Positions 25,650 to 28,284 of a stretch of 64,000 nucleotides of DNA are shown in pieces (the first letter of the stretch is position 1; the number at the start of each line of letters is the position of its first letter). The stretch lies in the sequence record NC_054922.1. The stretch is one strand, 5' to 3'. The notes beneath the pieces were generated by a model that saw only the letters and a program-made list of their open reading frames with translations, was not told the origin of the DNA and did not search any database. The stretch is from Escherichia phage vB_EcoM_KAW1E185. The position numbers were made by a program, and so were the translations under genes.

Positions 25650-25831
25650 AAGGAATTTATATAATTAATAAGTTCTTGTTCTTTATTATCGAATTCTTTA
25701 GAAAGTTCTTCGTACTCGTTTGCACTAAAAGGACCGCATTCATTACAAACTTTTTCCAATTCGCTATTTTTATCCATAACTTCGTGGATAAGAGAAAAGA
25801 GTTTGTCTTTTTGTTCTTTGCTTAGGCTCAT
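25646..25831 (-). CDS. Small helical protein (61 aa), same family
   Basis: MSLSKEQKDKLFSL. Confidence 0.45.
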   Translation of the reverse strand: MSLSKEQKDKLFSLIHEVMDKNSELEKVCNECGPFSANEYEELSKEFDNKEQELINYINSL

Positions 25832-26001
25832 ATATTAATTTCCAGAAGTTTTAAAATAATTCGCTTTTGCTTAAATATTTCCATAGTTAAATGATCAGTA
25901 TCTTTTTGACCAATTCCAATGGCAAAACCTTTATTAGCAGCGAGTTCAATTAAATTATCAAGTTCACGTAACACTTCGTACTGTAACTCAGAACTATTCA
26001 T
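25828..26001 (-). CDS. Hypothetical small ORF (57 aa), below ORF-track cutoff
   Basis: Own translation MNSSELQYEVLRELDNL...; ATGA overlaps at both ends. Confidence 0.4.
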   Translation of the reverse strand: MNSSELQYEVLRELDNLIELAANKGFAIGIGQKDTDHLTMEIFKQKRIILKLLEINI

Positions 26002-26210
26002 TTCGGTTTACCTTCTTTAACGAAATCTGGATAAGGATAAAATCCCGAATAAAATCCTTCACCTTTATGATTGACGCATCCTTTATTAGAACAATAGCAC
26101 CAATAATCGAAATCACAAGCCATTTCATCGTTGCATAAAGCAAAAACAACCGGCCACTTACACTTTTCACAATGGGCATTTTTAAGAATACTAGTTTGGC
26201 TCATAACCAT
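25998..26210 (-). CDS. Cys-rich small protein (70 aa)
   Basis: Eight Cys including CEKC and CYC. Confidence 0.45.
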   Translation of the reverse strand: MVMSQTSILKNAHCEKCKWPVVFALCNDEMACDFDYWCYCSNKGCVNHKGEGFYSGFYPYPDFVKEGKPK

Positions 26211-26428
26211 GTCACCTTTAAGCAGTATTCTTCTACATGCTGTTTACGACCTTTCTTATCAATAAAGGTATATTCAACGAATGTTCCAATGTAGTCTTTA
26301 TCTACATCATGTGGACTATTAATTGGACATTTAGTACGGCAAATGCGTTCCCATTGACGAATAATTACTGCCTTATTCTTTGGGTCATACGGATGTGGAT
26401 AATGTATATTCATAATAACGGTTCCCAA
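26201..26428 (-). CDS. Hypothetical protein (75 aa)
   Basis: ORF track. Confidence 0.4.
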   Translation of the reverse strand: MGTVIMNIHYPHPYDPKNKAVIIRQWERICRTKCPINSPHDVDKDYIGTFVEYTFIDKKGRKQHVEEYCLKVTWL

Positions 26429-26877
26429 TCAACAATCACAATTTCTAATTTAGAGGAATATGTATCTAAAATCCCCTCAATAATATCCCAGTTCCCTTTA
26501 CCTATGCCTGCACCAATCCTAGGCATATAGATTGTAGGTTTAATCAGTTTATTTTCACCAAACTCATTTAATTCTAACATACAATTCATTAAAGCGGAAT
26601 ACTCAAAATTTGGCCCCGGTTGAAATTGAGTATAAAGATTGAAGCAGTAAGCTTTATGAGTCCTAAAGTATTTTTCATAGACTGAGTAAGAACCGAGTTT
26701 AGTTACATCGCCCCATTCTGTCTGTAATTTATCAGCTTCCAAAATCTTAGGAAAAGCTTTAGCTAATTGACCAGCTACTCCTGATCCCATCGTGTGGAAA
26801 CAGTTACAGCCATGAGCGATATTTTTACCTTCAGCGAAAAGGGCGACAATATCGCCCTTGATATATTTTACAATCAT
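26410..26877 (-). CDS. Macro-domain-like protein (putative ADP-ribose binding/processing), 155 aa
   Basis: KGDIVALFAEGKNIAHGCNCFHTMGSGVAGQLAKAFP and PRIGAGIGKG resemble macro-domain motifs; not verified by profile search. Confidence 0.5.
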   Translation of the reverse strand: MIVKYIKGDIVALFAEGKNIAHGCNCFHTMGSGVAGQLAKAFPKILEADKLQTEWGDVTKLGSYSVYEKYFRTHKAYCFNLYTQFQPGPNFEYSALMNCMLELNEFGENKLIKPTIYMPRIGAGIGKGNWDIIEGILDTYSSKLEIVIVDWEPLL

Positions 26878-27221
26878 CTAGTACTCAATCCTCGATTATA
26901 AGAATCTACTAAACGGTCAACCATTGAATGACAAGCGGCTTTATCTTTCTCCTCCGCAACTGAACATTCTAAGGTATTCCACTTTTTAGCATATCGTTTT
27001 AATAATGTATCATTTTTGTATCTGCTTGATTTATCTCTTTCTCCGTCTTTATATGCATATATTAATTTCTGTGCAAATTCAGCTTGGCATGCTTTATTTT
27101 TCCCACAATAATCTGCCGCAGTGCGGTTTACATATTCTCTAATTTCAGTATATGATGTATCTGCTGATGCAGAAGCAGAAAATGAAATTAATCCTATACA
27201 TAAAACCAAAATTTTAGTCAT
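26874..27221 (-). CDS. Secreted small Cys-containing protein (115 aa) with signal peptide
   Basis: N-terminal MTKILVLCIGLISFSASASA. Confidence 0.5.
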   Translation of the reverse strand: MTKILVLCIGLISFSASASADTSYTEIREYVNRTAADYCGKNKACQAEFAQKLIYAYKDGERDKSSRYKNDTLLKRYAKKWNTLECSVAEEKDKAACHSMVDRLVDSYNRGLSTR

Positions 27222-27759
27222 TTACTATTTCCAAAAGTTTATTATTTTTAAGGTAATTAGCCTTTTCTAGGACTTCAGAAGCATATTTAGAACCAGCTTT
27301 AACATTCCATCCCGAATTATAAGAGGATATTGCTTTTCTTATATCGCCCTTATGTATATTTAACCAATAAGAAAGTTCAATGTACGCCCATGAAGCTGAA
27401 TTGGATCGTTTATTCAACATTCTTTTTATTTCAGCATCGGTCATATTATAACCAAGTTCCTTAACTCTTGCTCGCATAGTAGGCAAATAATTTTGGAACA
27501 TTCCATAGGCGTGATGCTTTGGTTTAGATTTTAAATTAACTCCGCCAGAGCTTTCTTGCCATAAAATGGCTGCCATTATATGACCTAATCCGCTCTTGTG
27601 GATATTTTTATGTGTTTTATATTTTCCATCCTTAGAAAATTGTTCCCCGAATTGATACGCGTAACGCATGTTATCGAGTTGGACATTACTGAAAGTATGC
27701 TCGGAGCTATGTGCCATCATTGAAATGGCCAATAGACCAGCGAGTAGTGCTTTTCTCAT
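27214..27759 (-). CDS. Secreted lytic-transglycosylase-like (SLT domain) protein, 181 aa
   Basis: Signal peptide MRKALLAGLLAISMMAHS; motifs WQESSGG, YGMFQ, SSYNSG. Confidence 0.55.
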   Translation of the reverse strand: MRKALLAGLLAISMMAHSSEHTFSNVQLDNMRYAYQFGEQFSKDGKYKTHKNIHKSGLGHIMAAILWQESSGGVNLKSKPKHHAYGMFQNYLPTMRARVKELGYNMTDAEIKRMLNKRSNSASWAYIELSYWLNIHKGDIRKAISSYNSGWNVKAGSKYASEVLEKANYLKNNKLLEIVND

Positions 27760-27766
27760 GCTTACC

Positions 27767-28228
27767 TCATTGAGTTTTAATTACTGCTTTAGAAGCCTTT
27801 CCTGGTAAACGACGACTGTTAATAATTGCCATCCTACATTGAAGTGACGGGTCTTTGAACTTCTCATTAGGTTTACAAACTGTAAATCCAAGCCAAAGAT
27901 TTCCATCTGTGATTTCTAAACGTCCAGGACGATATTCAACCCCATCAATAAAATCCTCGTCAATGTCAGGACGCGGAGGCATACTCAGGAATTCATTAAC
28001 TTCTAAAACATGGTCTTTTATTTTATGGAATAATTCAAAAACATATGTCTCATCAATCTCCCGCTGAATTGCGCGATCAAGAAGATGCTGAGAATATTTT
28101 AGATGAAACGATGAGACCCCTGCTGCTTTTGATGCCTCACGAATCTCATTGTTAATTTGACGAAACTCCGACTCAAAGTGACGACGAAGCTTATTTCGAC
28201 GGATAAAAACTTCTGTATTGATAGTCAT
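27767..28228 (-). CDS. regB: Endoribonuclease RegB
   Basis: 153 aa beginning MTINTEVFIRRNKLRRHFESEF; recognised as T4 RegB from memory. Confidence 0.8.
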   Translation of the reverse strand: MTINTEVFIRRNKLRRHFESEFRQINNEIREASKAAGVSSFHLKYSQHLLDRAIQREIDETYVFELFHKIKDHVLEVNEFLSMPPRPDIDEDFIDGVEYRPGRLEITDGNLWLGFTVCKPNEKFKDPSLQCRMAIINSRRLPGKASKAVIKTQ

Positions 28229-28255: not shown

Positions 28256-28284
28256 ATTATACCACAGTCAAGAGGAAAAGTAAA
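28256..28284 (-). promoter_or_regulatory. Early promoter upstream of regB
   Basis: Minus strand TTTACT - 17 nt - TATAAT. Confidence 0.6.

Follow-up and report, generated by a model that had tools for sequence, protein, structure and literature searches.

The macrodomains of TARG1 and of DarG, the antidote to DarT, share an equivalent lysine, DarG K80 corresponding to TARG1 K84 (PMC5179494). SCO6735 has Gln85 at this position; its Q85A variant is dead and its N27S variant nearly so, and the enzyme, which cleaves dT-ADPr, confers protection against DarT (PMC9411070). In phage T4, a clean knockout of tk.4 was sensitised to DarTG2 and the gene was named AdfM, for anti-DarT factor Macrodomain (bioRxiv 10.1101/2025.11.20.689424); the anti-DarT role of this macrodomain has thus been shown experimentally only recently, by others. 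The A1pp/macro match of tk.4 and the SLT match of vs.1 were published in 2006 (PMC1524935), the SLT annotation of vs.1 dating from 2003-2006. The gene vs, the purpose of which is an acknowledged question, is annotated uniformly across databases, records and PHROGs as encoding a factor that binds the cytoplasmic valyl-tRNA synthetase (ValRS).

Identity and layout of the locus

The window analysed here, a 64,000-nucleotide stretch of the genome of Escherichia phage vB_EcoM_KAW1E185 (NC_054922.1), is from a Tequatrovirus, i.e., a T4-type phage, and its DNA is 100% identical to that of phage 303Ecol101PP and 98.2% identical to that of T4. An earlier note made from the sequence alone had described three minus-strand ORFs in it, at 26410..26877, 26874..27221 and 27214..27759, and both these coordinates and all motifs quoted for the translations were recovered. 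Protein comparison identifies the three ORFs as T4 tk.4, vs and vs.1, respectively. The earlier note had missed these names, and its signal-peptide-bearing, Cys-containing protein is Vs, the annotated valyl-tRNA synthetase modifier. All three genes are known and catalogued in T4, and their macro and SLT assignments have been published; to this extent the finding is an ordinary one. The presence of vs.1, which had been called unexpected, is a conserved trait of T4-like phages.

The three genes follow regB (27767..28228, minus strand), the upstream neighbour, which encodes a sequence-specific endoribonuclease according to both its annotation and a match to Pfam REGB_T4 (E 8e-69). The regB stop and the vs.1 start are separated by 7 nt, the vs.1 and vs ORFs share an 8-nt overlap, and ATGA overlaps join vs to tk.4 and tk.4 to tk.3, so that tk.4 sits between vs and tk.3 in the same position as in T4. 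A promoter-like site of the sigma-70/T4-early type (28256..28284, minus strand; TTTACT-17-TATAAT with a TG extended -10, 10/12 match) lies 28 nt 5' of the regB ATG and is a candidate start of a regB-vs.1-vs-tk.4 transcript, and no terminator-like site was found on the minus strand of the region scanned. The promoter scan cannot by itself define transcription units, because the number of matches in the region (28) equals that expected from shuffled sequences (28.7), i.e., such sites are not enriched. The proposed co-transcription of the three genes with regB fits this combination of a candidate early promoter, abutting or overlapping ORFs and absence of terminator-like sites. The explanation that we favour as a whole, with moderate confidence, is that the regB-vs.1-vs-tk.4 run of the early region would pack two unrelated accessory functions in an operon-like manner.

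The macrodomain protein Tk.4

The tk.4 (adfM) gene (26410..26877, minus strand) encodes the 155-aa anti-DarT2 factor, a stand-alone macrodomain of the ALC1/TARG1 class as judged from Pfam, NCBIfam, PDB and alignment evidence. The protein is identical to T4 Tk.4 in 154 of 155 residues, position 39 being Ala here and Thr in T4. The macro domain, suspected from motifs in the earlier note, is confirmed by a match to Pfam Macro (PF01661) over residues 22-132, scoring 27.9 bits versus a gathering cut-off of 22. Single-sequence and profile searches of the PDB matched Bt_1257, Poa1p, TARG1, SCO6735 and DarG; with the profile of the Tk.4 family, aligned from 11 members down to 27% identity, the best solved relatives were Bt_1257 (E 3e-16), TARG1 (4e-14), SCO6735 (4e-10) and DarG (3e-7 to 1e-6). 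The family invariants are H22, G23, N25, G33, T83, Q84, P119, I121, G122 and G124, and both ADP-ribose-binding loops, the N-terminal H/N-x...G-x-G loop (H22, G23, N25, G33) and the C-terminal P-x-I-G-x-G-I loop that binds phosphate (P119, I121, G122, G124, I125), are kept in 11/11 members. The NCBIfam DarG model is matched in its macrodomain region only (model positions 2-146 of 338; E 3e-7, 29.9 bits versus a cut-off of 250), and Tk.4, which ends at residue 155, lacks the C-terminal DarT-binding domain of DarG.

The active site was mapped onto TARG1 with the family profile alignment, the BLASTP alignment having mis-gapped the centre of the protein and being unused for this purpose. In the profile alignment, the invariant Q84 of Tk.4 falls on TARG1 K84, so that the catalytic lysine (DarG K80, TARG1 K84) is absent and replaced by Gln84, while Gly/Ala126 falls on D125, leaving no equivalent of TARG1 Asp125. 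The same column holds Gln in Bt_1257 as well, and the spacing from Asn to Gln, 59 residues in Tk.4 (N25-Q84), is 58 in SCO6735. The extended mobile loop that follows this Gln in the SCO6735/Bt_1257 subclass, represented in Bt_1257 by a 6-residue insert (giykds), is absent from Tk.4. As read from this alignment, the active site of Tk.4 is of the Gln type found in SCO6735 and Bt_1257 and not of the Lys type of DarG and TARG1. We suggest that the invariant Gln84 would be held by Asn25 at the place of the catalytic Lys of DarG/TARG1; with Gln in place of Lys, activated-water chemistry would be likelier in Tk.4 than a lysyl-ADP-ribose intermediate.

The possibility that the protein counteracts DarT-like toxins, raised in the earlier note, has since been demonstrated for T4 tk.4 (AdfM), an anti-DarTG2 gene; this genetic protection is the result of others, obtained with the T4 orthologue that differs by one residue (bioRxiv 10.1101/2025.11.20.689424). 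In the HIDEN-SEQ tables, tk.4 is the single significant gene against DarTG2, its insertions falling from 288 to 45 reads per TA site (log2FC -2.64, padj 0). We propose that Tk.4 acts as a cytoplasmic stand-alone macrodomain that would allow phage replication in DarTG2-carrying cells, most likely by hydrolysing the ADP-ribose that DarT2 places on thymidines of single-stranded phage DNA.

The predicted exported proteins Vs.1 and Vs

The vs.1 gene (27214..27759, minus strand) encodes a 181-aa precursor, 100% identical to T4 Vs.1, which is predicted from its Pfam match, homologues and structural model to be an exported lytic transglycosylase of the GH23/SLT family. The SLT assignment of the earlier note holds, with a match to PF01464 over residues 61-154 that scores 25.1 bits versus a gathering cut-off of 21.3. 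The catalytic Glu69 lies in W-Q-E-S-S, and further family motifs are G86-M-F-Q89, Y147-N-S-G150 and Y159; across 21 homologues, the most divergent at 41% identity, no substitution occurs at E69, G86, F88, Q89, Y147, N148, G150 or Y159, and S70 is kept in at least 90% of these 21 sequences. No solved PDB relative was found by single-sequence search, and the family profile gave a weak match to g-type lysozyme (E 0.27). The AF2 model (pLDDT 88, pTM 0.82) has best Foldseek matches in the PDB that are all GH23 proteins, namely MltD, g-type lysozyme, GH23 chitinase, Slt and Slt70, with a probability of ~1.0, modest E-values (5e-3 to 0.3) and TM scores of 0.4-0.54. The homologues have no conserved Asp or Glu between E69 and Q89, and this single conserved catalytic acid favours a family-1 lytic transglycosylase, expected to yield 1,6-anhydroMurNAc, over a hydrolytic g-type lysozyme with Glu plus Asp; the term muramidase, applied previously to Vs.1, would then be an overstatement. 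The single-domain enzyme would use Glu69 to cut the MurNAc-GlcNAc bonds of the host sacculus.

The vs gene (26874..27221, minus strand) encodes a 115-aa protein that is annotated as valyl-tRNA synthetase modifier and is predicted here to be an exported four-helix protein. It is identical to T4 Vs (AAD42671) in 115/115 residues and belongs to phrog_1256 (E 2e-39). Outside this family Vs appears to be isolated: there was no match in Pfam and a sub-threshold chance match only in NCBIfam, no relative in the PDB by sequence, profile or fold, and a search of its profile against 1.84 billion representatives retrieved 8 clusters only, all of the same small family. Four cysteines (C39, C45, C86 and C97) are kept across both Vs subfamilies; two disulfides probably staple the modelled four-helix protein, although in principle the four cysteines could bind a metal instead. 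Among periplasmic inhibitors, no similarity in sequence or fold was detected to LprI/DUF1311, Ivy, PliG or Spackle, and neither a four-Cys lysozyme inhibitor of the LprI/DUF1311 type nor a Spackle-like protein found any supporting similarity as an identity for Vs.

Both proteins carry predicted Sec signal peptides, as the earlier note had proposed: residues 1-18 of Vs.1 (27706..27759, minus strand; MRKALLAGLLAISMMAHS, with cleavage before SEH) and residues 1-20 of Vs (27162..27221, minus strand; MTKILVLCIGLISFSASASA, with cleavage before DTS). The prediction used a von Heijne-type heuristic, which looks for an n-region with a charge of +1/+2, an uncharged hydrophobic core of 8-12 aa and a cleavage site with small residues at -3/-1. 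These features are present in 13/13 Vs and 21/21 Vs.1 homologues, although the signal sequences themselves diverge, and distant Vs homologues have a lipobox, LSGC, in place of the Sec signal. As a control within the window, a stricter thresholded version flags 4 of the 105 ORFs of at least 70 aa, and two of the four are the adjacent vs and vs.1. The structural models are consistent with removable N-termini: in Vs.1, the N-terminal helix has low pLDDT and is detached from the fold, and in Vs, pLDDT is below 50 in residues 1-20 and above 90 elsewhere. When produced in the cytoplasm of E. coli, full-length His-tagged Vs proved insoluble (PMC8076793). Both proteins are thus predicted to be exported via Sec to the periplasm, the mature Vs having 95 aa and a computed mass of 11.0 kDa, versus 13.1 kDa for its precursor.

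The two genes form a near-obligate pair. In 49 of 50 related IMG/VR loci, the vs ORF lies directly downstream of vs.1, and this adjacency persists where regB (absent in 4/50) or tk.4 (absent in 9/50) is missing; a third ORF with a Sec signal (phrog_4957) follows vs in 20/50 loci. In 27/27 loci found with Vs itself as query, the contig also carries vs.1; this set was obtained with the narrower Vs alignment, the broad one having no conserved stretch. The mutant data point in the same direction. In the public HIDEN-SEQ transposon data, insertions are depleted in both genes in LB liquid (26.6 reads per TA site for vs and 22.6 for vs.1, versus 179-767 for their neighbours), in M9Glc at 37 C (5.0 and 11.9) and in M9Glc at 30 C (9.9 and 9.4, versus 267-729), whereas insertions in regB, upstream of vs.1, are not depleted. 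The M9 effect of vs.1 alone is not significant after correction (padj 0.155), and the depletion of vs.1 insertions could reflect polarity or lost translational coupling onto vs. A model with Vs purely as inhibitor and antidote, there only to restrain a toxic Vs.1, is disfavoured because vs.1 insertions are themselves depleted and not neutral. We propose that Vs, translationally coupled to vs.1, would be a targeting or regulatory subunit that physically interacts with Vs.1, and that the pair would remodel peptidoglycan in the infected cell, being most important in slow-growing cells in minimal medium.

Alternative explanations and comparison with known systems

For each of these proteins another role has to be weighed. 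Tk.4 could mainly be an ADP-ribose-1''-phosphate phosphatase or O-acetyl-ADP-ribose deacetylase, or reverse the ADP-ribosylation by T4 Alt, ModA and ModB, rather than act as a DNA de-ADP-ribosylase. Its PDB sequence matches do include the yeast ADP-ribose 1''-phosphate phosphatase Poa1p and OARD1, "phosphatase" is the label of Tk.4 in RefSeq and of phrog_335 in PHROGs, and the match reported in 2006 was to A1pp (PMC1524935). However, the sole experimental phenotype of tk.4 is lost DarTG2 resistance, with tk.4 as the sole significant gene, and its Gln-type site matches an enzyme proven on dT-ADPr, SCO6735. As to the T4 enzymes in particular, Alt and Mod modify arginine, a linkage that macrodomains are not known to cleave. 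We consider such a main function of Tk.4 highly improbable. The reading of Vs.1, with or without Vs, as a device for lysis or superinfection, either an auxiliary endolysin aiding E at the end of infection or an enzyme acting in the periplasm to block or damage superinfecting phage, draws on its peptidoglycan-cleaving fold with predicted periplasmic delivery and on its weak PHROG matches to lytic tail proteins and endolysin domains; Sp and Imm are early periplasmic anti-superinfection proteins of T4. It appears quite unlikely, since vs.1 lies in the presumed early transcription unit behind regB and not with the late lysis genes, its insertions are tolerated (46/52 TA sites hit, with the gene classed as non-essential), and its fitness cost is seen in single-infection competition and is larger in minimal medium, which is not what superinfection exclusion predicts; no support was found for such an exclusion role, suggested in the earlier note.

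The most serious competitor concerns Vs, the predicted export and conserved cysteines of which sit uneasily with a 50-year-old cytoplasmic annotation. Vs may be the cytoplasmic "tau" that binds host ValRS, with a hydrophobic N-terminus that does not, or does not always, direct export, an adjacency to vs.1 that is mere gene packing, and a minimal-medium phenotype that stems from aminoacylation or amino-acid economy. The uniform annotation as valyl-tRNA synthetase modifier is in line with this, and so is the impairment of the vs knockout specifically in M9-glucose, since a role linked to translation is plausible in cells limited for amino acids; the authors of the knockout read the defect within the ValRS framework (bioRxiv 10.1101/2025.11.20.689424). 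Against it stand the canonical Sec signal or lipobox in every Vs homologue, in an otherwise unconserved segment, the four cysteines kept throughout the family, the position of vs locked beside one or two other predicted exported proteins in 49/50 loci, and the phenotype that vs.1 mutants share with vs. In favour of the classical role, mutations in vs reportedly alter plating on valS(ts) relA hosts, and purified tau is reportedly ~10 kDa; this size, however, fits the cleaved 11.0-kDa Vs and not the 13.1-kDa precursor and would itself imply passage through Sec. The primary tau/vs papers are those by Marchin and colleagues; among the papers searched here, none joins "valyl-tRNA synthetase modifier" with "signal peptide". 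We regard the cytoplasmic role as rather doubtful as a whole. The alternative that we put forward, tentatively and at somewhat less than even chances, is that Vs is not primarily cytoplasmic but is exported via Sec to the periplasm, where disulfides would stabilise it, has a fold without known relative and forms a conserved early peptidoglycan-remodelling module with Vs.1 and, in other T4-like phages, also with the phrog_4957 protein; as part of the same tentative reading, the link to ValRS would be due to a mis-assigned ORF, to in-vitro association after lysis or to a side activity of Vs molecules that are not exported. Predicted export, cysteines, pairing and shared phenotype together offer a concrete alternative to the ValRS story. 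If true, it would correct a textbook annotation and show that T4-like phages employ a cell-wall enzyme early in infection for a purpose other than lysis, in the form of a Vs/Vs.1 module on which a good phage yield from slow-growing cells would depend.

A functional analogy for Vs is provided by T4 Spackle (gp61.3), a small helical periplasmic inhibitor of the gp5 tail lysozyme; like Spackle, Vs is predicted to be a small helical, signal-peptide-bearing periplasmic early protein of T4 that is linked to a peptidoglycan-cleaving enzyme. Vs.1 shares with the GH23 lytic transglycosylases Slt70, Slt and MltD and with goose-type lysozymes the SLT domain, the motifs E-S, G-x-x-Q and Y-N-x-G and the helical lysozyme-like fold, at a sequence identity of just 14-19%. 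Unlike Slt70, Slt and MltD, it is phage-encoded and early-expressed, lacks LysM and superhelical domains and carries a family-specific N-terminal extension of ~40 residues, and the second acidic residue of g-type lysozymes is not conserved in it.

Tk.4 resembles DarG and TARG1 in its macrodomain class and ADP-ribose-binding loops, and DarG also in counteracting DarT, whereas the catalytic Lys, the Asp of TARG1 and the C-terminal domain of DarG are all missing. The preprint on AdfM compares it with DarG; we read its site as Gln-type instead, which predicts that point mutations of Q84 and N25 would be inactivating. With SCO6735 and Bt_1257 (PDB 5E3B, 2FG1; PMC9411070), Tk.4 has in common the Gln position and the upstream H-x-x-N; it differs from this subclass in being phage-encoded, in its activity being a predicted one and in lacking the mobile loop, which is longer by ~6 residues in the bacterial proteins. 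These likenesses suggest that phage anti-DarT macrodomains may derive from the bacterial "genome-protector" subclass or have converged on it.

Gene organization between regB and tk

The DNA of phage vB_EcoM_KAW1E185 comes from a myovirus of the T4 type. Over 2.1 kb around the three genes studied here, it shares 100% identity with Escherichia phage 303Ecol101PP and 98.2% with T4; coverage of this stretch reaches at least 80% in 642 phage records. The minus-strand genes are arranged in the order regB (27767-28228), vs.1 (27214-27759), vs (26874-27221), tk.4 (26410-26877) and tk.3, onward to tk; Vs.1 and Vs are identical to the T4 proteins at every residue, and Tk.4 differs from its T4 counterpart at one position. 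All motifs cited in the earlier note were found in the ORF translations. Its proposal that vs.1, vs and tk.4 are co-transcribed with regB is plausible given their tight packing (a 7-nt gap between regB and vs.1, an 8-nt overlap of vs.1 and vs, a common ATGA at the vs/tk.4 junction and another ATGA at tk.4/tk.3), a site resembling T4 early promoters (TTTACT-17-TATAAT, plus the TG of an extended -10) located 28 nt upstream of regB, and the lack of terminator-like sites on the coding strand from regB to tk in our promoter/terminator scan; the promoter scan has no statistical power, the number of its matches equaling the shuffled expectation.

Of the terminator-like hairpins in this region, the strongest (26839-26859; an 8-bp stem with five GC pairs, followed by a T-rich tail) is on the non-coding plus strand inside the 5' part of tk.4; read on the coding strand, it is an RNA hairpin close to the vs/tk.4 junction. 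Two small minus-strand ORFs between tk.2 and tk.3 (25828-26001 and 25998-26210; one of 57 aa, one of 70 aa) are extra relative to the T4 record, where tk.2 adjoins tk.3 directly. The 70-aa ORF matches Pfam Phage_zn_bind (PF23895, E = 4e-29) and is present in some related loci only.

Vs.1 and Vs as predicted exported proteins

The macro and SLT domain assignments of the earlier note hold, as Tk.4 and Vs.1 both exceed the corresponding Pfam thresholds (27.9 bits against 22 and 25.1 bits against 21.3, respectively). The muramidase that it called unexpected is, however, a long-noted conserved gene of T4-like phages, to which the Vs.1 family is confined in the searches made: the SLT similarity was in print in 2006, with earlier PSI-BLAST work cited (PMC1524935), and some current records already carry the label 'SLT-domain protein'. 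The catalytic Glu69 (W-Q-E-S-S), G86-x-F-Q89, Y147-N-x-G150 and Y159 are invariant among 21 homologues (identity down to 41%), and the family has no further conserved acidic residue between E69 and Q89; judging by this alignment, the acidic-residue pattern is that of a transglycosylase and not of a g-type lysozyme. Comparison with solved structures by sequence alone gave nothing useful; for the AF2 model (pLDDT 88), the top Foldseek matches all belong to GH23 (MltD, g-type lysozymes, a GH23 chitinase, Slt and Slt70).

The middle ORF, which the earlier note credited with a signal peptide and cysteines without recognizing the annotated gene, is vs, described everywhere as a modifier of host valyl-tRNA synthetase. 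The signal peptide is supported by a heuristic (n-region charge, hydrophobic core and cleavage site) in 13 of 13 close homologues: in an otherwise poorly conserved segment, they have a +1/+2 n-region and a hydrophobic core of 8-12 residues, with an AxA-like site at about residue 18-20. Among distant homologues, some have a Sec signal and others the LSGC lipobox of lipoproteins. As a window-wide control, the thresholded form of the heuristic flags 4 of 105 ORFs, including both vs and vs.1. The Vs family is tiny (eight clusters among 1.84 billion representative proteins searched), and no relative was found in Pfam, PDB or by fold. AF2 confidently models Vs as a four-helix protein (residues 22-112, pLDDT >90) with 20 disordered N-terminal residues; four Cys, which flank the turns between helices 1 and 2 and between helices 3 and 4, are kept across both subfamilies. 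The predicted mass of mature Vs (11.0 kDa) is closer than that of the precursor (13.1 kDa) to the ~10 kDa of the tau factor. Full-length Vs with a His tag did not yield soluble protein in the cytoplasm of E. coli (PMC8076793). Based on these features, Vs is predicted to be exported.

The two genes are tightly linked. A search of IMG/VR with the Vs.1 profile gave 50 loci, in 49 of which a Vs-family ORF directly follows vs.1 (46 identified by HMM, one frameshifted, two by signal and four-Cys pattern); the remaining locus is the most divergent of the 50. The pair is kept where regB (4 loci) or tk.4 (9 loci) is missing, and the reverse search with the Vs profile revealed vs.1 on the same contig for 27 of 27 loci. 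In 20 of the 50 loci, vs is directly followed by a third ORF from phrog_4957, encoding 133-152 aa with a Sec-type signal (ending ...A, followed by W) and two conserved Cys (L011:4366-4767, L033:4372-4791, L045:4357-4803, L046:4342-4767 and 16 further loci); thus, the predicted exported block there is vs.1-vs-X. This ORF has no Pfam match, and no homologue was found in the window or in T4-type genomes. In one IMG/VR contig, two overlapping ORFs (L036:4049-4376) together make up a vs homologue of the lipobox type, owing either to a frameshift, which would make it a pseudogene, or to an error in sequencing.

Mutant phenotypes and possible roles of Vs.1 and Vs

In the HIDEN-SEQ transposon study, the authors highlight vs only (log2FC -2.19 in M9-glucose versus LB; impaired knockout plaques; bioRxiv 10.1101/2025.11.20.689424). 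In their Extended Data Table 6 (sheets S7 and S8), vs.1 insertions are depleted similarly to vs insertions in both LB liquid (22.6 and 26.6 reads per TA site, respectively, versus 179-767 in neighbors) and M9-glucose (11.9 and 5.0 at 37°C; 9.4 and 9.9 in the 30°C DarTG2 control, versus 267-729 in neighbors). This match fits a shared pathway; alternatively, the vs.1 depletion may reflect polarity or lost translational coupling from vs.1 onto vs. Insertions in regB, just 5' of vs.1, are not depleted; their mild enrichment in M9 (log2FC +1.17, p = 0.049) is not significant after correction. A model in which Vs simply inhibits a toxic Vs.1 is disfavored, because loss of vs.1 is itself costly.

As the best reading of export, activity, interaction and purpose, we infer that Vs.1 and Vs would constitute an early periplasmic module, in which a predicted lytic transglycosylase acts with a small disulfide-bonded partner to condition the sacculus of the infected cell, with the greatest effect in slow growth. 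The main rival, that Vs modifies host valyl-tRNA synthetase exactly as annotated, has the uniform database label in its favor and seems less likely to us. All three genes are already known and the macrodomain function is already demonstrated; the remaining interest lies in the conflict of the Vs sequence features and synteny with the textbook cytoplasmic role.

The anti-DarT macrodomain protein Tk.4

The A1pp/macro match of tk.4 has been in print since 2006 (PMC1524935). The earlier note suggested testing for DarT counteraction, which others have done on T4 tk.4 with a positive outcome: in the November 2025 transposon-sequencing preprint, tk.4 was the only T4 gene whose requirement against DarTG2 was significant (reads per TA site down from 288 to 45, log2FC -2.64, adjusted p 0), a clean knockout confirmed this result, and the gene was renamed adfM (bioRxiv 10.1101/2025.11.20.689424). 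Tk.4 is an anti-DarT2 macrodomain, as shown genetically by these authors. Against the NCBIfam DarG model, Tk.4 aligns with the macrodomain portion (E = 3e-7) and scores far under the full-length cut-off. Among solved structures, the family profile matches Bt_1257 (E = 3e-16), TARG1/OARD1 (4e-14), Poa1p (4e-11), SCO6735 (4e-10) and the DarG macrodomains 5M3I and 5M31 (3e-7 and 1e-6).

In the first phosphate-binding loop, several T4-like metagenomic contigs (L003, L004 and L005; e.g., L003:1827-2291) have K31-A32 (HTMKAGVAG); in most of the family, as in reference T4 and the window, these positions are G31-S/A32 (HTMGSGVAG). This substitution falls in a ligand-binding loop.

Residues H22, N25, T83 and Q84 are invariant in an 11-member Tk.4 alignment (identity down to 27%). 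In the profile alignment, the catalytic Lys84 of TARG1 aligns exactly with Q84 and its Asp125 with Gly/Ala; since TARG1 K84 is equivalent to DarG K80 (PMC5179494), the residue essential to both enzymes is, by this alignment, missing from Tk.4. SCO6735 and Bt_1257 likewise have Gln at the catalytic position. They also have a mobile loop six residues longer, which is absent from Tk.4, and thus we do not file Tk.4 as a full member of their subclass. SCO6735 cleaves thymidine-linked ADP-ribose, apparently via activated water, and protects against DarT; its Q85A mutant is dead and N27S nearly dead (PMC9411070). Given this activity, these mutants and the shared Gln, Tk.4 is probably a Gln-type dT-ADP-ribose hydrolase, with a predicted mode of action most like that of SCO6735.
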